This document shows positions 9,027 through 57,380 of a DNA stretch of 64,000 bases, piece after piece. The DNA is taken from assembly GCA_963751345.1 (NCBI GenBank), contig CAVVUS010000022.1, positions 1-64,000 of the forward strand. Reading direction: 5' to 3'. Below the pieces are notes generated by a model. The model searched no databases, was not told the origin of the DNA, and saw only the letters and a list, made by a program, of their open reading frames with translations. This DNA comes from an uncultured Chloroflexia bacterium (GTDB lineage Bacteria; Chloroflexota; Anaerolineae; B4-G1; SLSP01). Made by a program: the position numbers and the translations under genes. The first letter of the stretch is position 1, and the number at the start of each line of letters is the position of its first letter.

Positions 9027-9045
9027 GGGCTGAATGGAGGGAGAG

Positions 9046-11123
9046 ATGGACATCACGACGGTACACGTGGTCTTTAAGACACACCTGGACATCGGCTTTA
9101 CCGACCTGGCGGCAAACGTGGTCGAGCGGTACTTCAACTCTTTCATCCCCGGATCGCTGGCCCTGGCAGAGCAAATGCACCAGCGAGGGGGAACGGAGCA
9201 ATTCATCTGGACGACGGGCTCGTGGTTGATCTACGAGTATCTCGAACAGGCGGGGCCTGCCGAGCGCAGGCGAATGGAGGAGGCCATCGAGCGCGGGGAC
9301 ATCGCCTGGCACGCGCTCCCTTTCACGACAATGACCGAGGCCGAGGACGCCGACCTCTTCAGGTTCGGCCTCTCCCTGAGCCAGAGACTGGACGCACGCT
9401 ACGGTCGAACCACCATCGCTGCCAAGATGACCGACGTGCCCGGCCACACGCGCGCGATCGTGCCGCTGATGGCGGAAGCTGGGCTGCAGCTCCTGCACAT
9501 CGGTGTCAACCCGGCCTCCAGTGCCCCGGACGTGCCCCCCGCCTTCGTCTGGCGGTCGCCGGACGGCGCCGAGATCCCTGTGCTCTACTCGGCCGGCAGC
9601 TATGGCACGCTCCATCTTGTCGAGGGACTGGAGGACGCGCTGCTCATCTCCCTCACCAACGACAACCTGGGACCGCCGCCGCTTGAGGCGATTCTGGGGG
9701 TCTACGATCAGATGCGGGAGCAGTTCCCCGGCGCTGAGGTCAAGGCGTCCACGCTGGACGCGTTCGCGCGCAAGCTGGCGACGGTCAGGTCATCCCTGCC
9801 TGTGGTGACGGGCGAGCTCGGCGACTCGTGGATCTACGGGATCGGGTCCGACCCCAAGAAGATCAGCCGGTACCGAGAACTCCTGCGCCTCGCACAGGTG
9901 TGGCGGGCCCGTGGCGTGGATCCTGCTGCACTTCATACCCTGAACCGTAACCTCGCGCTGGTCCCTGAACACACCTGGGGCATGGATGAGAAGGCCTACC
10001 TTGGAGACTACGTCAACTATGCCACCGCGGACTTCGCGGCGGCACGCGAGCGGGACGTCGTCGATACTCTCGATGTGCCCGAGGCGTACGTGCGCTATAG
10101 TTTCTGGGCGCGGCCCGACAACACGTACAGCCGGTTCGAGTCCTCCTGGCAAGAGCAACGGGCCTACGTCTCGCGGGCAATCGACGAGCCTGGAGGATAA
10201 CGCACTGAGGGCCGAGGCGGCCGAGCGGTTGGCGATGGTCGAACCCAAGCTGCCGGATAAGGATGGCTATCAGCCGCTGGACCCGGCCGGGGTGATCGAA
10301 ACCCCACAGTTACATCGTGGGCCTGGACCCGGACACGGGCGGCATCACGCGACTGGAGCAGCGGGAGCCGAGTCGGACGCTCGCTGCTCCCGATCACGTG
10401 CTGGGCCTTTTCCGGTACGAGAGCTTCTCACAGGCCGACTACGACCGCTGGATGCACGACTATGCCATCAACATGGAGGGCAACGCCGGGTGGGCCTACG
10501 CTGACTTCACCAAGCCGGGGATGGACGCCGCCCGACCCCAACCCGAACACCAGATGTACGAACCCCATCTGGTCACGGCAATGCAGAGATCCACAGACAA
10601 TGGCCTGGATCTACTGCTGGAATTGGCCATGCCCGAGGCATGCGCGACGCTGCTGGGTGCCCCGCGTAAGGTCACCATCGAGTACATGTTCCGCAAGCAG
10701 CGCATCGACATCCGCCTGCAATGGTTCGCCAAGCAGGCATGCCGGCTTCCCGAAGCCGCGTGGTTCTCGTTCAGCCCCCTGGTCGAAACGCCGGAGAACT
10801 GGAAGCTCGACAAGATGGGGCAGGCAGTCTCACCGCTCGAGGTCGTGCGTCACGGGGGGCGGACGCTGCACGCGATCGGGCGGGGCGTCGAGATCCGGGA
10901 CGCGTCCGGCTACCTGGCGATTGACAGCCTGGATGCCCCTCTGGTGGCGCCGGGAGCGCCGCGGCTGCTGCATTTCGACGATACGCAGCCGTCGCTTGAG
11001 GGCGGCATGCACTTCAACCTGCACAACAACCTATGGGGAACTAACTTCCCGATGTGGTATGAGGAGGATGCGCTCTTCCGGTTTGCGCTGCGGCTATTGC
11101 CCACCGAGGGAAATCACGTATAA
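9046..11123 (+). CDS. DUF5054 / GH38-like glycoside hydrolase (2 frameshifts)
   Basis: VHVVFKTHLDIGFTD, MTDVPGHT, EHTWG, HFNLHNNLWGTNFPMWY. Confidence 0.75.
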
Positions 11124-16185: not shown

Positions 16186-17298
16186 ATGGATAGCACCGTT
16201 GGCATAGGCGTCGTGGGCGCGGGAGCGATTGGGATTCGGGGCGCGTTGATGCACCTGACGCAACCCGACGTGCAGGATCGGGTCCGGGTGACCGCCGTCT
16301 GCGATCCGGCCCCGGGCCGGGCAGAGGCCGCCGCAGCGAAGTATGGCGTGCCCGCGCACTACCTGACCTATGAGGAGCTACTGGCTGACCCGAACGTCGA
16401 TGCGGTGACCCTCTGCTCTCCCGATCGGCCTGCACTACGAGCAGGGACTCCAGGCCATCGAGGCAGGCAAGCACCTGCACGTCAACAAGACAATGACGAC
16501 AACCGTGGTCGAGGCCGACTACTCATCGAGGCAGCCGCTGCTGCGGGGGTGCACATTGTGGCCTCGCCGGGCATGATGCTCTACCCACACAACCGCCGCG
16601 TCCGCAAGGCCGTGCTCGAGGGCAAGCTCGGACGCCTGGTGTGGGCGGTAACCGGCACCTCGGGCGTGGGTAACTACCACATGAACGAGGAGTTCCGTAC
16701 CGGCGATGACGTGCTGACCGATGTGGACCCCAGTTGGTACTTCCGAAAGCCAGGTGGCGGCCCTCAGTACGACGTCACTGTCTACTGCCTGCACAATCTC
16801 ACCGGCATTCTTGGGCCCGCAAAACGCGTCACGGCGATGTCGGGCCTGGTGATCCCGGAGCGGGACTACCATGGCAAGACGATCACGTGCGATATGGACG
16901 ACAACACCGTGCTGCTGCTCGACTTCAGCGACGCCTTGTACGCCTTCGTTTACGCCACGCCGACCGGCAGCCTCACCCAAGGCTTCCAGCCCAATATCTA
17001 CGGCACGTCCGGCGCGATCGTCGGCACCAAGCTCGGTGACATCGACCTGAAGCTGCCGGACGACTATTCACCGCACGTGAGCGGGCCACACACCCAGATG
17101 AAGGAGTATCATGTCTTCGAGGACATGATGCAGCTCGTGGACTGGATCCGTGACGGCATCCCCTCCGTCGCCACGCCGGAGCACGCTCGCCACGTCATCG
17201 ACATCATCGAGTCCGGCTACCGCGCCGCCGAGACCGGCGAAACGCAGGCCCTGCGGACAACGTTCGAGCCGCTGTCGGCGGAGGAGCTTGATGTCTGA
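16186..17298 (+). CDS. Gfo/Idh/MocA oxidoreductase (compensating frameshifts near 16420-16515)
   Basis: IGVVGAGAIG, AVCD, ELLADPNVDAV, GGGPQYDVTVY. Confidence 0.85.
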   Translation: MDSTVGIGVVGAGAIGIRGALMHLTQPDVQDRVRVTAVCDPAPGRAEAAAAKYGVPAHYLTYEELLADPNVDAVTLCSPDRPALRAGTPGHRGRQAPARQQDNDDNRGRGRLLIEAAAAAGVHIVASPGMMLYPHNRRVRKAVLEGKLGRLVWAVTGTSGVGNYHMNEEFRTGDDVLTDVDPSWYFRKPGGGPQYDVTVYCLHNLTGILGPAKRVTAMSGLVIPERDYHGKTITCDMDDNTVLLLDFSDALYAFVYATPTGSLTQGFQPNIYGTSGAIVGTKLGDIDLKLPDDYSPHVSGPHTQMKEYHVFEDMMQLVDWIRDGIPSVATPEHARHVIDIIESGYRAAETGETQALRTTFEPLSAEELDV

Positions 17299-17435
17299 TA
17301 CCAGAAGCCGGAAGCCAGATACCGGATGTTTGGTGCTGGATGTTCGACATTGCATGCTGGGCCTTGAGATCCGCCGATGTCGGCAACTCCCGAACCAAAA
17401 CGGAGACTGTTATCCAACATCCGGCATCCAGCATC
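17294..17435. repeat. Heptamer-repeat palindrome (GGATGYT / CATCCRG)
   Basis: TACCAGA AGCCGGA AGCCAGA TACCGGA; GGATGTT..GGATGTT versus CATCCGG CATCCAG. Confidence 0.65.
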
Positions 17436-17462
17436 GTTTCTCATGTCCTTAGGGAGGCACCC

Positions 17463-18966
17463 ATGACTCGCAATCTCACCCTCGGCCTCGACGTCTCCAC
17501 CACCGGCGCGAAGGCGCTGCTGATCGATGACACCGGCACGGTTGTCAGCAGCGCGACGACGCCGCTGCCGCTCTCCACGCCCAGGCCACTCTGGTCCGAG
17601 CAGGATCCCCACGATTGGTGGGACGGCATCGTGATGAGCATCCGGCAGGCGCTCGCCTCCGCCGGGGCCACCGCCGACGACGTCAAAGCCGTCGGAATGA
17701 CGGGCCAGATGCACGGGCTGACGCTGCTCGACGGCGCCGGCGAGGTGCTCCGCCCGGCGATCCTGTGGAACGACCAGCGCACCGGCGCCCAATGTGACGA
17801 GATCCGCGCGCGTGTGGGCAAGCAGCGCTTTATCCATACTCACCGGAAATGATGCCCTGACCGGATTCACTGCGCCAAAGATCCTGTGGGTGCGCGAGAA
17901 CGAGCCCGAGGTCTATTCCAGGGCAGCGCAGATCCTGCTGCCCAAGGACTACATCCGCTACAAGCTCACGGGCACCTATGGCACGGACAAAGCAGGGGCG
18001 TCGGGCACGGTCCTTTTCGATCTGAAGGCGCGTGACTGGTCGCCCGAGATACTGGAGGCATTGGAAATCCCTGCGGCGTGGCTCCCGAAGACGTACGAGG
18101 GGCCCGAGGTCACGAGTGCCATCAGCGAGGCCGCCGCCGAGCTGACCGGCCTCAAGGCAGGCACGCCCGTCGTGGGCGGCGGGGGTGATCAGGCAGCGGG
18201 GGCCGTGGGCGTGGGCGCCGTCGAGCCCGGCATCGTCAGCCTCGTGCTAGGCACCTCCGGCGTCGTCTTCGCCTCCACGGGCGAACCCTATATCGAGCCC
18301 GAGGGGCGGCTCCACGCCTTCTGCCACTCGGTGCCTGAGACCTGGCACCTGATGGGCGTGATGCTCTCGGCTGCGGGAAGCCTGCAATGGTTCCGCGATA
18401 CCGTGGCGCCGGATCGTTCCTTCGACGATCTGACCGCAGCAGCAGCCGGGGTGCCGGCAGGCGCAGAGGGACTGCTCTTCCTGCCCTATCTCACCGGCGA
18501 GCGGACCCCCTACCCCGATCCGCTGGCGCGGGCGGGTTTCGTGGGGCTGACCCTGCGCCACGCCCAGGCGCACATGACGCGAGCCATCCTGGAAGGCGTC
18601 GCCTTCGGGCTGCGCGACAGCATGGAGCTGATGAAACAGGCCGGATTGGGCGAGATCACCCAGGTCCGCGTCGCGGGGGGCGGCGCCAAGAGCGCGCTAT
18701 GGCGCCAGATCCTCGCCGACGTGATGGACAGCGAGCTCGTGACGGTCAACACCACCGAGGGCGCCGCCTACGGCGCGGCCCTTCTTGCCGGCGTCGGCGC
18801 GGGCGCGTGGGCGAGCGTCCCGGAGGCATGCGCCGCCGCAATCACCGTCGTCGACCGCGTCACGCCGCAGCCCGGCGCGGTCGCCATGTACGACGAGCTC
18901 TACCCGCTCTACCGCGGGCTCTACCCGGCGCTCAAACCGACCTTTGACGCGGTAGGGGAGGCGTAG
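17463..18966 (+). CDS. xylB: Xylulokinase (frameshift near 17835)
   Basis: GLDVSTTGAKA, TGQMHG, ILWNDQRT, GGGDQAAGA, LPYLTGERTP. Confidence 0.93.
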
Positions 18967-48441: not shown

Positions 48442-49345
48442 CTACGCGAGGTCCAGCCGCATCTCAATCCGTCGGAACGACTCGAGATAGCGCATCGCCA
48501 AGCAGACCCGGCAGATGAGGATCCGCGGCGGGCAGGTTCTCCGTTTTGGTGTCCTCTATCGGATGCCGGGTATGGAGGGCATGCGCCAAGGCCCGTGCGA
48601 CCCGCGCCGGATCGCCCTGCTCCGTCTGGAGCACCAGCCTTCCCAACTGGAAAACTGTGCTCTGGTAGACGAGCCAGCCGCAGTCACCGTCATCGCAGGT
48701 CACCTCGAGAGCCGACAGGCCCCCGCTGTTTCGCAGCGACGGATACTCGTCAAGCCAGGAAGGAACGCTGCGGCGCTGCCGCAACAGCGCCAGGGCCCGG
48801 TCTTGGTCGCCGTGCGTGACGGTATAGGCAGGTACCGCCCCTGTAGGGGGACCGGGCGGACGACGAAGAACCAGCAATTCCCGCGTCTCGACAAACCCCA
48901 GCTTGCAGAACAACCGGTGGGCGGGCTCGTTGTTCTTGATAACTTCAAGGATGATATGATCGGCGCCTAACTTGCGGGATTGGCTCACCAGATAACGCAT
49001 CATGGCCTCGCCGGCGCCGCTGTGTCGACGAACCGGTAGGACTCCTAACCGCGTGATCCAGGTGTGACGGGGCCGCACGCCCAACATCGCCAATCCGAGT
49101 GTCTCGCCCTCGTCCTGGGCGACCACGGAGCGGCTCAGATCCACCTCATAATCATCGACATACGCCTGAAGCCGTGCCACGTTCATCGGCATCGGCACGA
49201 TGTAGTCGATGCGTGATTGGTTGTAAGCTTCGGTCAGCTCCTCTACGGTGAACTCCGAGGCCGGTATGAGCCGGCACGGCGGAACGTAGCCAGGCATCAG
49301 ACCGCAGTCGGAGGAGGGGTGAACGGTGTTCCCGCTGACAGTCAT
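48442..49345 (-). CDS. Tandem-domain GNAT acetyltransferase (3' frameshift)
   Basis: WITRLGV.P..R..GAG..MM, LEVI.NN.PA.RLF.KLGF; alternate frame ends YLESFRRIEMRLDLA*. Confidence 0.85.
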
Positions 49346-49453
49346 GGACCTCCCTCAACAAGGAATCGCATAATGACAAAAAGGGGCAGCCGGACACTCC
49401 GGCATCAAAGGGAGAAGGCAACACACGCCGGATCTCCGCGGCGTCCGGGCCTT

Positions 49454-49876
49454 CTACATATCAGACGCCGCATTTGGAGTGGCTTCGCACGCGTCCTCTT
49501 CCCCCGCATCTGCTGGGACCAGGAAACTGCCGACCTGGTTGGCAAACTCACGCGCGCTGATTGGCTTGCTGAGATAGCCATCGCAGCCGTAGGCGTCTGC
49601 CATCTCGGCGGCAAAGTCCTGGGGCCACGCCGTAACCACTACCAACGGAATCTTGGACAACAGCGACGACCCCTTGATCAGGCCCGCCACCGTCTGTCCG
49701 TCCAAATCCGGCAATCCCATATCGAGGAGAATCAGGTCCGGCACGGTGCTCATCGCCATCCGGAGGCCGCCCTCCCCGTCGGGCGCAACCACCACGCTGT
49801 AGCCCGCATACTCCAGCAGGCGTCGCATCAGTCGTGACTGATGCGGATCATCTTCCATAATCAAGATGGTTGTCAC
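49454..49876 (-). CDS. Stand-alone response regulator (DivK/CheY-like REC)
   Basis: MEDD, LILLDMGLP..DG, VTA, GCDGYLSKP. Confidence 0.93.
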   Translation of the reverse strand: MTTILIMEDDPHQSRLMRRLLEYAGYSVVVAPDGEGGLRMAMSTVPDLILLDMGLPDLDGQTVAGLIKGSSLLSKIPLVVVTAWPQDFAAEMADAYGCDGYLSKPISAREFANQVGSFLVPADAGEEDACEATPNAASDM

Positions 49877-50259
49877 GCTTCGACCTCCCGTCTTTCGAAG
49901 AAATGATCTACCTTGGCCAACAACTCGGCGACGTGGATGGGTTTCGAAAGGTAGTCGTCACACCCTTGGCTTAGGAAGCGCTCACGGTCACCATGCATTG
50001 CGGATGCCGTCAGCGCGACGATCCACGTGTCGCGGAGCCCGGGGTCCTGTTTCACCCTCGCGGCGATGTCCAGGCCGTCGAGCTCGCCGGGCAGTGCAAT
50101 ATCCAGCAAAAGCAGAGCGGGATGATGGGCCTCAAGCATGTCCCATCCCTCCGCACCTGTCTCTGCCAATAACACCTGGTACCCGTGGGAACCCAGGATC
50201 TTCTCGACCAGGCGACGGTTATGGTAATGATCCTCGATGTAGAGCACGGTCCTGTTCAC
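49873..50259 (-). CDS. Stand-alone response regulator (DivK-like REC)
   Basis: IED, LLLLDIALP..LDG, LTASAM.GDRE, GCDDYLSKP. Confidence 0.93.
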   Translation of the reverse strand: MNRTVLYIEDHYHNRRLVEKILGSHGYQVLLAETGAEGWDMLEAHHPALLLLDIALPGELDGLDIAARVKQDPGLRDTWIVALTASAMHGDRERFLSQGCDDYLSKPIHVAELLAKVDHFFERREVEA

Positions 50260-50261
50260 GG

Positions 50262-52359
50262 CTACCTCGCCAGAATGGCCTCGACCTGAGCCAGGAATGC
50301 GCTGCGGTCGAAGGAGGATTTCGACCAGATGGAGGTGACGTTGGACGCCAAACGGGCACGCATTCGGGCGTCAATGTCGTCGTCCGACGTCACGACGATG
50401 ACGGGCGTCTCCATCGTCTGCTCACGGGTCCGCAGCATCACCAGGAGCTTCTCGCCGCTGACGTCCGGCAGGACAAGATCGAGGACAATCAGATCAGGCG
50501 GCGCCTGCTCTACCAGGGTCAGGGCCTCCGCACCCGAGTGAGCCTCGTAAACCTGCGAGCCGGGCCGCGTCTCAAGGAGGCGCCGAATCAACCTCGCCTC
50601 CGGCGCATAGTCGTCAACTACGAGAATCCGCTGCCGACCTTCGCGCCCAAACCTGCGCTCCGGCGGCGCGCCATCGGACGGCAACGCCGCCCGCGGTCCC
50701 TCCTCAACGATACCCACGACGTGGTCCACCAGGTCGCGGGCGCTGAAGCTGCCCTTCTGCCACACCGATGCGGCATACTCGTCGAGCCGCGCGCGTTCCT
50801 CCGGCTGCAGGGTCTTTGCCGACACGATCACGACCGGAATCTTGGCGGTGCGCGGGTCGGACTTCAGCACGTCCATCACGGCGAATCCGTCCATCTCCGG
50901 CATCATAAGGTCGAGGAGCACCAGATCGGGCTGGCGCTGACGGACGAGATCGAGGCCGTCCTTGGAGGAGTTGGCCTCAAAGACGCGGTACTGGCGGTAG
51001 TTCTTTAGGAAACGACGGATCAGCCGGCTGTCGTGGGGGTTGTCGTCGATGATGACGATCGTGGTGATACGCTCGTCCAGTTCCTCCAGCATCGTCGCGA
51101 GTCCCTCGGTGGGCCGGACGGCCTGCGATGACTTGACCGAGAGGTTGAGGATATAGCGATCTTCGAGCGCGTACTTCTCCGCGCTAAACGTGTGGCCGGA
51201 GCAGTTGACGACGACAGTCTCTTCGGATCCGATGATTCCCTGGTCCAGCAGCTTCTCGAGACCTGCGAATGCGACGCTTGCCGCGGGCTCCATAGAGATC
51301 CCTTCGACCCGGGCAACGCGGCGCATGGCGCGGAAGGCCTCCCCGTCGCCGACAGACACCATCGCGCCGCCGTAGCTATCGGCCGCCTGCTTGAGCAGGC
51401 GATACGCAAGCCCCGGATTTCCCGTGGCCAACACGGTGATCAGACTGTCAGGCTGTTCCACCGGCACGGCTTCGTCGAGCCCCTGGACCCAGGCACGAAC
51501 CATCGGATCGCACCCCTTGGTCTGCACCACCGCGATCTTCGGCACGTGGTCGATCATGCCTGCAGCGACCAACTCTTCAAACCCCTTGAGGACCCCCAGC
51601 GGCCCGATACCACCCGAGACTGCCTGAACGTACCAGTCCGGGGCGCCCCACACCGGCTGCGAGGCATCCCCCGACCTGGGCCAGGCTTCCGCGATCTCAA
51701 ACGCGATGGTCTTCATGCTCTCTTTGCACGGGATCGACTTGGCCCCGCCGTCGAGGGCCAGCCCCCGACGCTTGGCGAAGTTGGCCGCAACCTCTTTGGC
51801 CTGGTCATACGTGCCACTGACCTTGATCACCTCGGCATCGTAGAGCGCCAACTCGCGCATCTTCTCCGCGGGCACGCTGCTGGTCACAAAGGCCCAGAGC
51901 TTGATCCCGGCCCTGGCACAGTAAGCAGCATAGGCCGCGGCGGCATTGCCGGTCGAGGCCAGCACGATCTCGTGTACCCCGGTGGCCTTCAGGGCGCTGA
52001 CGGCTGTAGCGGCCTGCCGGTCCTTGAAGGAGCCGGTCGCGTGCTGGCGTTCGTCCTTGATCCAGATACCGCCGTGTCCGGTCTCTGCCGCCAGCCCCTC
52101 GGCCGGCAGTAACGGCGTGCACCCTTCGCCCATCGTGACCGGACGGAAGTCCGCTGGGAAGGGAAGGAGTTCCTCGTAGCGCCAGAGCGACATAGACCTT
52201 CCGCTTGAGCTCGGAGGGCCAGAGGTTCGCCAGGCGTCCCGTCTCGTATTCGGCATGCAGCCAAGCGCTGCCGCACGCCGTACACGTTGTTGTGTACGGA
52301 TCGGGCGGCATCCTGTGGCCGCACTCGAGACACCGCACAGCCGAGAATAGCGTCGTCAT
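50262..52359 (-). CDS. Threonine-synthase-like PLP enzyme (Zn-ribbon N-terminus) fused to two receiver domains (frameshift near 52200)
   Basis: CxxC..CxxC, SLWRY, MGEG.TPL, TGSFKDR, ASTGNA, VSGG.G, EPAAS; REC1 IIDD..LLDLMMP; REC2 VVDD..VLDLVLP. Confidence 0.88.
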
Positions 52360-55300
52360 ACGCTCGCCTTCTCCACAGCGTCCTCAGCCGGTTCACCCCT
52401 CTCGGGGTCAACGTCGCCGACGGGAAGGCAAACCGTGAAGGTGCTGCCGCGGCCCACCTCACTCCGCACCGTCAGCGTGCCCGCGTGCATCGCAACCAGG
52501 TGCTTGGTGATCGCCAGCCCGAGCCCCGTCCCCTCCGCGCGCCGCGTGCTTGAACCATCCACCTGGCGGAAGCGTTCGAAGAGGACCGCAAGATTCTCCT
52601 CAGAGATACCCACCCCCGTGTCGCTGATGTCGATGCAGACACGATCGGGCTGAGGATCGTACCGCGCATGCAAGTGCACCTCCCCCTCCTCGGTAAACTT
52701 GATGGCGTTGGAGACGAGATTGTTGAGGATCTGAGAGAGTCGCATAGGATCCGCCATAATCACAGGCACGTCATCATCTGCCGACACGGAGAGCGTTACG
52801 GGCTTGGGCTGTTTATGTAGCAGCCCCATACAGTGAGACTTCGCTTCCTCGAGCATGAGCAGAACGGCAACGGGAGCCTTCGTCAGGGTCATCCGACCCG
52901 CCTCGATCTTCGTCAGATCGAGCACGTCGTTGATCAGCTTGAGAAGCTGCTGGCCGTTCTCGAAGATGGCATTGACGTCCTCATCCATGTCGGGTGTCAG
53001 CTCCCCGTCGATGCCCATCAGCATCACCTCGGCGTACCCCAGGATGGAGTTGAGCGGCGTACGCAGTTCGTGGCTCATATTGGCGAGGAACTCACTCTTG
53101 AGACGATCTACCTCTCGGAGACGCTCGGCGACGGCCTGGACTTCCTCGAAATACCGCGCGTTACGCAGTGCAATGGCAATCTGTCCCGCAAGCGCGCTAA
53201 AGACGTCCACCTCGGACTCGCTGAATCGCCCGATGGTGTCGTCCTGGACGTCAAAAACGCCGACGACTTCGTCACCGACCAACATCGGGATCGCCACTTC
53301 CGAGCGCGTCTCCGGGAGCAACGGATTGGGCATAAAGGAAGGTGCTGCCCTCACGTCGTTCACGAGGACGACGTTCTTGCTCCTGGCCGCTTCCGCGACG
53401 AGGCTCGGTCGTTGATCGAGCGCGATGGCGTGGCCCCGCTCACGCATAATCCGCCCGGCATTTCCCGAGCCGACACGCATGATCAGGCGCCGGCTGCCGG
53501 GATCCAACGTGTAGACGTGCAGATGATAGAGATCGAATCGCTCCTGAACCAGCGGCACGACCGCCTCCAGCAGGGCGGTCGGATCTAGAATCGCATTGAC
53601 CTGTGTCGAGACATCCGCCGCGGTGCGCAGCTGCAGGGCGAACTGCCGCAGATCGGCCTCCGCCTTCTTGCGGTCGGTGATGTCGCGGACAATCGTCGCG
53701 ACACTGATGGGCTCGTCTTTCTCTCCCCTGACGGAGAAGAAGGTCAGGGAGGCCTCAAAGCGGGTGCCATCCAGGCGGGTTTGGGCCACCTCGCCCTGCC
53801 AGCCTCCGGCCCCGGCAGCCGGCAGCACCTGCTCGATGAGCTTCACGACCTCCTCCTCAGGCCAGAGGGCAGTGATGCTCGTGCGCACCAGCGTCGAAGG
53901 TGACGCGTCGTCGCCGAAGAGCCTCAGGCAAGCGGGATTTGCATAGATGATCTGTCCGGCGAAATCCACCATCATGATGGCGTCCACCGCGTTCTCTGCC
54001 AACGCCTGGAACCGCGCGATCTCGCGACGCGCGCGCTTCCGCTCGGTGATATCACGTGTGATCGACACAACGCCCAGGGGTTCCCCCACTGGATCCCAGA
54101 GCAGAGCAGAGCTCCGCTCGGCGTCGAAGGAGCTACCGTCCTTGCGCAGCATCGTATACTCTTCGATCCGGCCCTGTCCGGATTCCAGCGCTTGGTACAT
54201 ATTCTCTGCCAGCCTGGACCAACCGGACTTTGTGACCAACTCCATCGCGCTCCTGCCCAGCAACTCCTCGCGCGCATCATAGCCGTGAAGTCGGAGGGCA
54301 GCCTCGTTCAAGTCGGTGATCCTGCCCATCATATCGGTCACCATGATGCCCTCGGTCATCGCGTCGAAGATCGCCCGCACGGTTTGAACGGCGCTTCGCA
54401 GATTCTCCTGCATCTCGGTCTGGCGGGCAAAGAGCATCGCGCTGTAGAGTGCGTTGGCAAGTTGTCCCGATAGGGTACGAAAGACGTCGAGGTCGGCCGG
54501 CGTGAAGTATCCGAGCTGATCGGATTGCACGTCGAAAACCCCGAGCACCTGATCGCCGATGGTGATGGGAACGGCTACCTCAGATCGTGTTCGCGGGAGC
54601 AGCATGTTGGGGAGGAAATCCGGATCGGCAGAGACGTCATTGACCAACACGGGCTCGCGGGTATTCGCCGCACGCGCCACGAGACTGTGAGGGTGATGGA
54701 GTGAGATTCGGTGATTCTGCTGCACCATAATGCGGCCGATCCGACCATAGCCGGCCCGGAGGACGAGGTCATCGCCATCGACGAGATACACGTGGGCGTG
54801 GTAGAGTGCGAATCGCTCCTTGAGAAGAGGAATCACGGCGTCCAGCAGCTTATCGGGATCCAGAATCGCCCCCACCTGCTCGGAAATCTCCGCCGCGGTG
54901 CGAAGCTGGACGGTGAAGTGCTCGCGCTCCTTCTCGGCCTGTTTCCGCTCCGAGATCTCCCGGGCGAAGACGCAGTTGAACTCCTGATCGCCGTATTTCA
55001 GGTAGTTGGCCGTCACCTCCATCGGGACCAGCTTGCCCGTCTTTGCCCGATACTCCGTATCAATGGTGAAGCGCCGCTCTGCCTTGACCTTCTGCCAGTG
55101 AACCGCCCAGACGCTGGGAATCATGTTGGGGTCGAGACGCGAAATCGCAGGCAGTGACAAAAGCTCTTGCTTCGTGTATCCGAGAAGCTGACACGCCGTA
55201 TCGTTGGCGGAATAGAGGCTGCCGTCGGGCCGGATCCAAAGGATCGCAGCCGGCGCGCCGTCAACGGAGAACTGTGTCAGGCTGAGGCGCTCCACGTAGC

Positions 55301-55904
55301 GGGCGTTCTGCAGCGCGGTCGCAATCTGACCGGAAAGTGTGAAGAGGACATCCTGTATGGCCTGACTGAAAGCTCCAACTTCGTCATCCTGGACGTCGAA
55401 CACCCCCAGGACCTCGTCACCGACCACCATGGGGAGCGCAAGCTCGGACCGGGTGTCAGGAAGCAGCGGGTTGGGAAGAAAGCCCGGATTTCCGGTCACG
55501 TCGTTCACGACGACCGGCGCCCGCGTGCGAGCAGCACGCGCCACGAGGCTCTGCTCGGCGTCAAGCGAGATCTTATGTCCGCGCGCCAGCATCTGGCGAC
55601 CCGGCTCGCCATATCCGGACCGCAGCCGGAGCTCACAGCGCTCGTGGTCGAGCGTGTAGACGTGAACGTAGTAGACGCCAAACCCCTCCTTGAGCAGCGG
55701 GATCACAGTTGCGAGTAGTTGCTCGGGATCAAGGATCGCGCTGACCCGGCCCGAGATCTCCGAGGCGGTTCTCAGCAGGCTGGCCAGGGAAGGCACCGAC
55801 CCTTCAGTCGACTTCAAAGCAGCGTCGCCAGGATGAGCAGCGCCATGGAATGCACCGGACGTGACCGTTGACGAAACGGCAGGACGATGACATCTCCGTC
55901 GCAT
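52356..55904 (-). CDS. Cytoplasmic sensor histidine kinase GAF-PAS-GAF-PAS-PAS-GAF-HisKA-HATPase
   Basis: FLANMSHELRTPL, NLVSNAIKFT, DTGVGI, GTGLGL; three similar GAF repeats; no TM segment. Confidence 0.93.
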   Translation of the reverse strand: MRRRCHRPAVSSTVTSGAFHGAAHPGDAALKSTEGSVPSLASLLRTASEISGRVSAILDPEQLLATVIPLLKEGFGVYYVHVYTLDHERCELRLRSGYGEPGRQMLARGHKISLDAEQSLVARAARTRAPVVVNDVTGNPGFLPNPLLPDTRSELALPMVVGDEVLGVFDVQDDEVGAFSQAIQDVLFTLSGQIATALQNARYVERLSLTQFSVDGAPAAILWIRPDGSLYSANDTACQLLGYTKQELLSLPAISRLDPNMIPSVWAVHWQKVKAERRFTIDTEYRAKTGKLVPMEVTANYLKYGDQEFNCVFAREISERKQAEKEREHFTVQLRTAAEISEQVGAILDPDKLLDAVIPLLKERFALYHAHVYLVDGDDLVLRAGYGRIGRIMVQQNHRISLHHPHSLVARAANTREPVLVNDVSADPDFLPNMLLPRTRSEVAVPITIGDQVLGVFDVQSDQLGYFTPADLDVFRTLSGQLANALYSAMLFARQTEMQENLRSAVQTVRAIFDAMTEGIMVTDMMGRITDLNEAALRLHGYDAREELLGRSAMELVTKSGWSRLAENMYQALESGQGRIEEYTMLRKDGSSFDAERSSALLWDPVGEPLGVVSITRDITERKRARREIARFQALAENAVDAIMMVDFAGQIIYANPACLRLFGDDASPSTLVRTSITALWPEEEVVKLIEQVLPAAGAGGWQGEVAQTRLDGTRFEASLTFFSVRGEKDEPISVATIVRDITDRKKAEADLRQFALQLRTAADVSTQVNAILDPTALLEAVVPLVQERFDLYHLHVYTLDPGSRRLIMRVGSGNAGRIMRERGHAIALDQRPSLVAEAARSKNVVLVNDVRAAPSFMPNPLLPETRSEVAIPMLVGDEVVGVFDVQDDTIGRFSESEVDVFSALAGQIAIALRNARYFEEVQAVAERLREVDRLKSEFLANMSHELRTPLNSILGYAEVMLMGIDGELTPDMDEDVNAIFENGQQLLKLINDVLDLTKIEAGRMTLTKAPVAVLLMLEEAKSHCMGLLHKQPKPVTLSVSADDDVPVIMADPMRLSQILNNLVSNAIKFTEEGEVHLHARYDPQPDRVCIDISDTGVGISEENLAVLFERFRQVDGSSTRRAEGTGLGLAITKHLVAMHAGTLTVRSEVGRGSTFTVCLPVGDVDPERGEPAEDAVEKASV

Positions 55905-56048: not shown

Positions 56049-57162
56049 TCAGGGCGCCTGGAACACGAAGATGTACTCGTGCTTGAAGACATAGAAGCCC
56101 CCGGCAAGCGCACGATAGCGCCACAGCGCTTGCTGATCGCGTTTCGCCCGAGTTCTGTCCAGATTCTTGACGACGATGCTCTTGAGTGTGCACCCCTGGT
56201 CAAGCACGACCTGCATCGCCTGAAAACCCAACGGCACCCACGCGCTTCCCTGGTACTTGTCGCCAATCACCACGACGAGCACGTGCCCGGGCGCCAGCAC
56301 GTCCAGGGCACGAGCAACGACCGCGGAGAAGCGACTGAGGAAATCCTCCACCGTCGGTGCGCTGGAGAGATCCGCGCCTCCCCCGCCAAACCGGATAATA
56401 TCGTGGTAGGGAGGGTGCAGGATGACCAGGTGCGCTTTCTCGACGCTGCGCGCCGCCAGAGCAGCCTCCAGATCAAACGTGGCGCTATCGCCAACGGCAA
56501 TTTCGGTGCTGACATGGTGCGGGTTGGGCTCCTGTGCCACGACCTCGGCGGCGTGGGCTGCCACATCGGGGTTGAGTTCCACGCCGAACCCATTGCGCCC
56601 CAGACGCCGGCACTCGATAAGCGTAGTACCACTGCCCACAAAGGGATCGAGGACCCAATCGCCCGGCCGCGTGAAACGCAGCATCATCTGGTGTGGGATC
56701 TGCGGGATGAAATTGCCCCAGTACCAGGCCCCATGGGCACCGGAAGTATCCCGACGATTGACAATCCACAGACTGTCGGTCTGAATCTCGTCGTACTCCT
56801 GCCAACGATTGAGGTTGATATCGTTGAGCGCGCCGGTGCGTACCTCGTCGACGGCCCGCCGAAGACGAGCGAGGTAGTAGGTGGCTCGCCGCGCCGTGCG
56901 CGCCGCAAGGATCTGCTCCAGTTGGTCGAGCAACACGTCACGCCGGTACAACACAGAGTCAGCACTGACATCGGGCGGCGCCGACGGGTGCCAGGCCGGC
57001 GGTGCCTCGACGACAGGCGCGACCTCTACCACACGCCCAAATGCGACCACCAACTCCCGAAGAACCTGCAGCTCGGTGACCTCATCGCAGGCGTCGAACA
57101 AGCTTCTGTAGCTCGGATCTGGTGATCTGCACATAGGAGGTCTTGGGAGATCGGCTAACCAT
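56049..57162 (-). CDS. Orphan N4-C/N6-A amino-methyltransferase (start 57134, or 57162 with a frameshift)
   Basis: GNFIPQIP, VLDPFVGSGTT, catalytic HPPY, KHEYIFVF. Confidence 0.82.
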
Positions 57163-57380
57163 TCAAGTTTTATATCGCAGTTCCGGGTGGTGTCAACCAA
57201 TGTATGATGGTGGGGAGACAGGGCGCGACGTTCCGGAGAGTCAACGTTCGAACTTCTTCTCACGGAAGTGGACAGAGCACGGGGCTGCGGTACACTGGTC
57301 GGCGCAGGTCAGGCTATGCCGACGCCGCGAGGCGTGTCGCCGTCCGGCGACCCAGCGGCGGGTAGAAAGGAACAACACGT

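Follow-up and report, generated by a model that had tools for sequence, protein, structure and literature searches.

Does a bacterial two-component system use an amino-acid enzyme as its output? This question is raised by five genes arranged head to tail on the minus strand, at positions 48442-55904 of a 64,000-nt stretch of DNA from an uncultured Chloroflexia bacterium (GenBank assembly GCA_963751345.1, contig CAVVUS010000022.1, positions 1 to 64,000; hereafter the window). In the open reading frame (ORF) list of the window, these genes encode a histidine kinase, an enzyme of the threonine synthase (ThrC) fold that depends on pyridoxal phosphate (PLP) and is fused to two receiver domains (PALP-REC-REC), two single-domain receivers (REC) and a GNAT acetyltransferase. 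The original prediction, made from the sequence of the window, described the cluster as a phosphorelay whose only output is an enzyme making an amino-acid derivative. With a probability of about 0.5, we favor the reading that the fused protein is a response regulator with a PLP enzyme as output, that the enzyme acts on an amino-acid-like substrate, and that the metabolite is exported by an EamA-family transporter or acetylated by the GNAT.

The fusion and its recurrence across the class

The fusion of enzyme and receivers is real, conserved and common in the class to which the window belongs. In a sample of 401 genomes of this class, matches at E ≤ 1e-80 were detected in 118 genomes (29%), which fall into 63 of 216 genera; among the high-quality genomes, 83 of 273 have a match. 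The 118 include the unpublished genome G389, without which the count is 117 of 400. The combination of domains that the original prediction had read from a single copy was borne out by database homologs, the best 120 of which all carry PF00291 together with PF00072, most of them in proteins of 680-730 aa. Their source labels are 'pyridoxal-phosphate dependent enzyme' or 'threonine synthase', and the named records belong to Anaerolineae, Anaerolineales or Thermoflexales.

The fusion occurs in two forms: PALP-REC-REC of about 700 aa, which is the form of the window, and PALP-REC of about 560 aa. At least two matches were found in 25 genomes, and several of these combine a match covering both receivers with one covering the first receiver alone. 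The genome of the window has a two-REC match only. The features of the operon are as follows, with P0002 denoting an uninterrupted ortholog of 697 aa (90% identical) and P0001 the protein on record for this assembly.

52356-55904, minus strand: histidine kinase, 1182 aa (ORF and Pfam)
52195-52359, minus strand: ThrC-like Zn-ribbon N-terminus, CxxC…CxxC (ORF 51805-52359; aligns to P0002 residues 1-55)
52191-52197, minus strand: apparent +1 frameshift, with a single surplus base separating codons gtc and atg (DNA compared with P0002, '…GRVTSLWRY')
50262-52193, minus strand: ThrC-like PLP domain, REC1 and REC2, 643 aa from ATG 52193 (Pfam; identical to P0001)
about 51195-52139, about 50712-51059 and about 50277-50630, minus strand: PALP, REC1 and REC2 within the enzyme (Pfam)
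49873-50259, minus strand: single-domain receiver, 128 aa (Pfam Response_reg, 4.5e-24)
49454-49876, minus strand: second single-domain receiver, 140 aa (Pfam Response_reg, 1.2e-21)
48442-49345, minus strand: tandem GNAT acetyltransferase (Pfam Acetyltransf_1, alignment with eight orthologs and three-frame translation)

Gene order, domain content and junction coordinates agree with those given in the original prediction when compared with ORFs, Pfam and the sequence itself. The kinase and enzyme genes share an ATGA overlap (52356-52359), a 2-nt gap (50260-50261) follows the enzyme, the two small genes share a GTGA overlap (49873-49876), and a 108-nt gap precedes the GNAT gene. The enzyme matches Pfam PALP (2e-66) and has two Response_reg stretches. 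The small genes consist of Response_reg alone and, as claimed, bear no DNA-binding domain. Likewise in line with the earlier account, the scan of ORFs between 36 and 64 kb of the window showed neither hom nor thrB. The same scan gave no response regulator with a DNA-binding domain.

The kinase contains three GAF and three PAS domains, HisKA and HATPase_c, with the H-box SHELRTP at residue 944. Its maximum Kyte-Doolittle mean over 19 residues is 1.26, i.e., it has no hydrophobic segment, and it is therefore predicted to be cytoplasmic. The DD, D, S/T and K positions are readable in all four receivers of the window, as expected from the phospho-acceptor Asp reported for each of them, and at least 95% of 56 REC1 and 22 REC2 sequences retain the acceptor Asp and the Lys. 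The term phosphorelay fits less well: a His-Asp-His-Asp relay would be expected to include an Hpt domain, and the Pfam scan gave no match to Hpt families in any cluster protein or neighbor.

To describe the genomic context of the fusion, 56 loci were examined together with the window, comprising 15 full-length matches plus L047, 20 best-scoring places and 20 one-REC places picked for family diversity, and their neighbors were mapped by tblastn. L047, from a Candidatus Villigracilis record with the enzyme gene spread over three frames, enters neither the counts nor the tree. L134, where the contig ends inside REC1, was left out of the by-form counts and kept in the tree and the REC1 alignment, and L041, a stand-alone ThrC-type match, was excluded. 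The resulting set holds 22 two-REC and 33 one-REC loci.

The association with a kinase and with further receivers, which had been put forward from the single operon, is conserved. A GAF-type kinase core ends at most 1.5 kb upstream on the same strand in 49 of the 55 loci (20/22 two-REC, 29/33 one-REC), and a single-domain REC gene lies directly downstream of the enzyme in all 22 two-REC loci; a second small REC gene was gathered from eight loci. Further downstream, a GNAT gene was found within 5 kb in 10 of 19 two-REC loci, counting those whose contig continues downstream for more than 2.1 kb. Among the one-REC loci, 31 have contigs that extend downstream by 1.6 kb or more, and 25 of these carry an EamA transporter gene within 5 kb downstream (20 on the same strand and 5 on the opposite one). 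The partners are never swapped: by tblastn within 5 kb downstream, EamA was absent from all 22 two-REC loci and GNAT from all 33 one-REC loci. The EamA protein has a weak match to a carboxylate/amino acid/amine transporter model, and the remaining downstream genes vary between loci.

The kinase upstream of one-REC genes is usually a hybrid protein, GAF-HK-REC-REC (HK, histidine kinase), often preceded by GAF proteins and a ParA/MinD-like ATPase. A larger conserved island was observed at L010, L012, L013, L015, L019, L020 and L144, containing one to three big GAF proteins, the ParA/MinD-like ATPase (AAA_31), the hybrid kinase, PALP-REC and EamA, with an OmpR-type regulator and up to two further kinases transcribed divergently.

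Two further arrangements bear on what the pathway controls. L117, L118 and L120 are two-REC loci of one genus. Where the GNAT would stand, they encode a threonine synthase of the PRK08197 type (588.7 bits; cut-off 303). In L006 (8896-9966) and L132, a REC-adenylate/guanylate-cyclase gene is inserted between kinase and enzyme, and because it sits in the operon, the pathway of these two loci probably also has a cyclic-nucleotide output. The claim that the enzyme is the only output was therefore overstated, the more so since single-domain receivers can themselves act as outputs.

In the L117 genus, the threonine synthase gene follows directly after PALP-REC-REC and the REC gene, with another GAF kinase next. 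It spans 10577-11857 in L117 (the scored copy), 6192-7811 in L118 and about 5910-6911 in L120.

The enzyme domain and its relation to threonine synthase

The enzyme domain shares with the Zn-ribbon threonine synthases (PRK08197 / TIGR00260; 2D1F, 2ZSJ, 1UIM, 6CGQ) the fold-type II PLP fold, the SFKDR lysine, the ASTGN loop, the EPA motif and the N-terminal Zn ribbon. Its best solved sequence matches are threonine synthases (E 1e-38), as are its best fold matches (template modeling (TM) scores of 0.80-0.85, normalised to the target); cysteate synthase 9K3C follows at Foldseek rank 16. The best NCBIfam model is likewise the threonine synthase PRK08197. The enzyme differs from this group in scoring below all curated cut-offs, with 225.3 vs 303 bits for PRK08197 and 136.4-138.7 vs 167.1 for TIGR00260, and in its one or two fused receivers. 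Cysteate synthase (TIGR03844; 9K3C) offers a precedent for a ThrC-derived enzyme with a changed substrate. Here, however, that model reaches 120.6 bits against a cut-off of 324.9, the operon has no sulfonate-pathway context, and cysteate synthase is not fused to a receiver.

Two other thrC loci of the same genome, on contigs C24 and C18, score above cut-off (238 and 232 bits). A quick tree placed the 56 fused sequences in one clade (100 by the Shimodaira-Hasegawa-like approximate likelihood ratio test, SH-aLRT) on a stem of 3.6 changes per column, to which the genome's own thrC copies do not belong, and within it the 33 one-REC sequences form a supported clade among two-REC lineages. By these sequence comparisons, the genome holds three paralogs, of which two are canonical thrC copies and the third, the divergent enzyme of the operon, is not the thrC of its genome; this is in keeping with the original prediction. 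The public label 'threonine synthase' on members of the fused family is probably misleading.

The alignment reveals a clear division between kept and replaced positions. The fused family keeps SFKDRQA with the PLP lysine, ASTGN, EPA and a Ser at the position of the TGHG Thr. In 50 two-REC homologs, K112, S135-T-G-N138, S248-G-G-x-G-P253 and N385-C-S-G-H-T-F391 are invariant; SFKDR, ASTGN, the Gly-rich loop and S387 are all kept without exception. The enzyme domain is accordingly predicted to bind PLP, because all cofactor-binding motifs are invariant. Four Cys positions of the Zn ribbon are also conserved in the family alignment. Of the two features that had been read as kept in the window, the PLP lysine (TGSFKDR) stands, and the Zn ribbon stands only as a part read in another frame than the PLP domain.

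At other sites, the five solved threonine synthases and the genome's plant-type copy read N-S-x-N-P-x-R-x-E-G-Q-K-T, G-N-x-G-N and S-T-G-N/D-T, and the fused family reads D-x-G-A-x-x-i-x-x-x-E-s-M-K-T, S-G-G-x-G-P and S-T-G-N-v-A. Residues N154, S155, R160, N188 and T88 of the Thermus thermophilus enzyme, kept in all five solved structures, align to G, G, C/K, the S-G-G-x-G-P loop and A, and this replacement pattern is family-wide. We take the replaced Asn, Ser, Arg and Thr to be residues that hold the substrate phosphate in the T. thermophilus and Arabidopsis structures. The phospho-amino-acid substrate suggested in the original prediction is thus doubtful, since these presumed phosphate-binding residues are replaced.

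The family also has an extra invariant tail absent from threonine synthase, N-C-S-G-H-T-F-x-A-E-K-x-A-L-E-D-R-Y, and this segment, with its HTFxAEKxALEDRY stretch, may be an interaction or lid element. In the alignment of 50 homologs, the tail corresponds to P0002 residues 385-402 (about 51100-51150 of the window), and from residue 390 the predicted local distance difference test score (pLDDT) falls below 50.

The nearest stand-alone relatives in a library of 1.84 billion proteins are 376-435 aa long and 40-54% identical. They carry the S-G-G-x-G-P loop, and the majority likewise score under the thrC cut-offs; for these reasons, the fused family is part of a wider, uncharacterised ThrC-like subfamily.

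Proposed control of the enzyme and competing readings

We propose a branched two-component system, in which the soluble GAF/PAS kinase would phosphorylate the receivers fused to the threonine-synthase-fold enzyme and probably also the one or two small downstream receivers. That the receivers accept phosphate from the adjacent kinase is predicted from gene adjacency and conserved synteny. Given the remodelled substrate pocket, the reaction would most likely be a beta/gamma elimination or replacement, or related PLP chemistry, and the amino-acid-like substrate would be a compound other than O-phosphohomoserine. Receiver phosphorylation would change the activity of the enzyme, which we infer to occur most plausibly by dimerisation or by loss of an inhibitory contact. 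In the two-REC form, the tandem GNAT may handle the product or substrate by N-acylation or detoxification; in the commoner one-REC form, the EamA-family transporter may do so by export or import. The amino-acid derivative of the original prediction fares unevenly against these loci: a small-molecule output gains support from EamA beside most one-REC copies, and the acylating partner is found in only about half of the two-REC loci scored.

A more specific version, which we regard as doubtful, is a widespread, undescribed Anaerolineae module in which the kinase directly gates a PLP enzyme making an extracellular signal or antimetabolite derived from an amino acid, to be exported by EamA where one REC is present or N-acylated by the GNAT where there are two. 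If true, it would represent a new class of response-regulator output and a candidate cell-to-cell signaling chemistry in filamentous Chloroflexota.

Several observations weigh against an enzymatic output handled by these partners. Kept PLP-binding residues do not prove turnover, and regulators of the GabR type keep such residues while acting as sensors. In the full-length AlphaFold model, the domains are confident, but the predicted TM score (pTM) is 0.59, the linkers at residues 390-430 and 556-571 have pLDDT below 50, and neither a confident domain packing nor a regulatory contact is predicted; since the tethers are disordered and the pTM is low, no fixed receiver-enzyme contact can be assigned. 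The locus set described above is a non-random sample, and in the window both the enzyme and the GNAT gene bear a frameshift. The GNAT itself is loosely tied to the operon. Linkage was counted by hand from two match tables, over the 47 genomes besides that of the window with an ortholog at E ≤ 1e-40: the GNAT adjoins the enzyme gene in only 12 of them, both are present but non-adjacent in 26 (some of these assemblies being fragmented), and 9 have no PALP-REC match at all. Adjacency occurs in six families, counting the window's genome and G319, where the adjacent match is weaker (E 1e-21). By these counts, the GNAT is a conserved gene of the class whose link to the two-REC operon is moderate, recurring without being obligatory, and the co-occurrence expected by the original prediction holds in part of the loci only.

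The enzyme domain could have another role. It may be an input, binding an amino or phospho-amino acid through PLP with little or no turnover and modulating the phosphorylation or dephosphorylation of the fused receivers; metabolic status would then be fed to the pathway, and the true outputs would be the single-domain receivers or unlinked regulators. Such a role would suit the order of domains, because the enzyme precedes the receivers in the chain, whereas in most response regulators the receiver comes first. It would also suit the small receivers at every two-REC locus, the PLP-fold sensor domains known from GabR/MocR regulators, and the L117, L118 and L120 operons, where a sensor of the threonine pathway would lie beside a canonical threonine synthase. 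We nevertheless consider it improbable, as all PLP-binding and carboxylate-loop motifs are invariant in 50 sequences, the conserved transporter and acyltransferase neighbors fit a metabolite-handling enzyme better, and control of a REC by a fused PLP domain has no known mechanism. Still less likely is a third, signal-regulated threonine synthase isozyme that makes threonine from O-phosphohomoserine, even though the closest solved sequences and folds and the top NCBIfam model are those of threonine synthases and the EamA family includes threonine/homoserine exporters. This reading is at odds with scores below every curated cut-off, two thrC copies above cut-off elsewhere in the genome, a family-wide replacement of the N-S-x-N-P-x-R and G-N-x-G-N motifs, the long separate branch of the family and the lack of hom and thrB among the neighbors.

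The two frameshifts, both overlooked in the original prediction, raise a different question, namely whether the cluster is intact in this genome. The Zn ribbon (from ATG 52359 to about 52195) and the PLP domain (from ATG 52193) are read in different frames, the ORF of the former (51805-52359) overlapping that of the latter (50262-52256), and comparison with P0002 places the extra base at about 52194. In the GNAT gene, the called ORF stops at 48464. The conserved C-terminal strand MRYLESFRRIEMRLDLA is encoded in a different frame that runs from 48495 to a stop codon at 48442-48444, and the frameshift lies near 48496; the ending shared by eight orthologs is …GYVExFRRIEMxLxL. The shifts could be real, leaving the enzyme without its Zn ribbon and the GNAT without its last strand in a cluster that decays in this genome only, with the family functional elsewhere. 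Two frameshifts within 3.7 kb, neither of them in a long homopolymer, would be consistent with such decay, and a GGAAGG-like motif 5 nt upstream of ATG 52193 could allow translation to restart. We find this unlikely, because at least two unrelated genes of the window are split alike and the remaining enzyme ORF is open and 90% identical to the intact ortholog. An FGGY-family sugar kinase gene (17292-18963, plus strand) breaks near 17830, its profile positions 2-119 being read in one frame and 119-245 plus the C-terminal domain in another, and a DUF5054 gene (9034-11123, plus strand) is divided over two ORFs at profile positions 1-122 and 169-290. Assembly indels are for this reason the likely cause of the frameshifts in enzyme and GNAT. 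Contigs from four public runs did not span 52142-52243, and the best run shared only 0.24 of sampled words. Programmed frameshifting was ruled out, as the orthologs are in frame.

Precedents and the tandem GNAT

Response regulators with enzymatic output are well established and include CheB, PleD/GGDEF, RpfG and similar proteins, in which one or more receivers are fused to an enzyme encoded beside a histidine kinase; the tandem REC pair of PleD resembles REC1-REC2 of the enzyme described here. In most known cases, such outputs concern nucleotide second messengers and chemotaxis. The difference in the present case is that the proposed output is a PLP amino-acid enzyme and that it lies N-terminal to the receivers. 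No description of a PALP-receiver fusion or of such an output was found in the main texts of an open-access paper library. The new element would be the pairing of an output that is a PLP amino-acid enzyme with either a transporter or an acyltransferase; such an output, if true, would link phosphotransfer directly to small-molecule metabolism. The two conserved partners, EamA and the tandem GNAT, are concrete handles for finding the product.

The PLP-dependent autoinducer synthases LqsA and CqsA are fold-type I enzymes and are not known to be fused to a receiver. Their product is detected by the kinase, in contrast to the control of the enzyme by the kinase that is proposed here. In the Lqs and Cqs clusters, these synthases are encoded beside a sensor kinase and a response regulator (PMC3376566), and this joint encoding of a small-signal PLP enzyme with two-component proteins is the closest functional analogy that we can name.

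The GNAT stands where the original prediction had placed it, 108 nt beyond the operon on the same strand, with its ORF frameshifted before the last strand. Pfam Acetyltransf_1 spans the first half of the protein. AlphaFold modeling of the ortholog at L007 gave a tandem GNAT fold (pLDDT 88.7, pTM 0.83), and its best Foldseek matches are tandem-GNAT proteins at TM 0.5-0.68, with an identity of only 11-18%. The nearest solved folds include the clavulanic-acid-pathway protein 2WPX, MAB_4324, MshD, glucosamine N-acetyltransferase, Eis and VipF, of which the last two acetylate aminoglycosides or proteins. The two-domain fold is common to these proteins and the GNAT of the operon, but the fold does not give the substrate class, as enzymes acetylating small molecules and enzymes acetylating proteins are both among the nearest folds. 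Of the 401 genomes, 88 have a GNAT match at E ≤ 1e-15. A second GNAT paralog, 36% identical, is encoded in the window's genome at G000:C30:55230-56039.

Outside the operon, a promoter-like match was found at 56029-56002 on the minus strand, about 100 nt 5' of the kinase gene, as a consensus match only. The flanks are unrelated to the operon and encode a prolyl-tRNA synthetase, a convergent ORF, a DNA methylase and a peptidase. Partial Pfam profile matches elsewhere in the window (CdhD, Cytidylate_kin2, N6_N4_Mtase (56049-57263)) may reflect further indels.

The class is common in sediments, soils and digesters. The one-REC form was also observed in metagenome-assembled genome records titled Anaerolinea sp. 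and Bellilinea sp., two genera that include cultured strains, so that the question could be taken to the bench. Other ThrC fusions in the protein library are P0205, P0224, P0236, P0241 (about 610-633 aa) and P0255 (571 aa); the C-terminal piece of P0224 resembles the regulatory end of 2-isopropylmalate synthase, whereas P0255 has an N-terminal RNase H-like domain.

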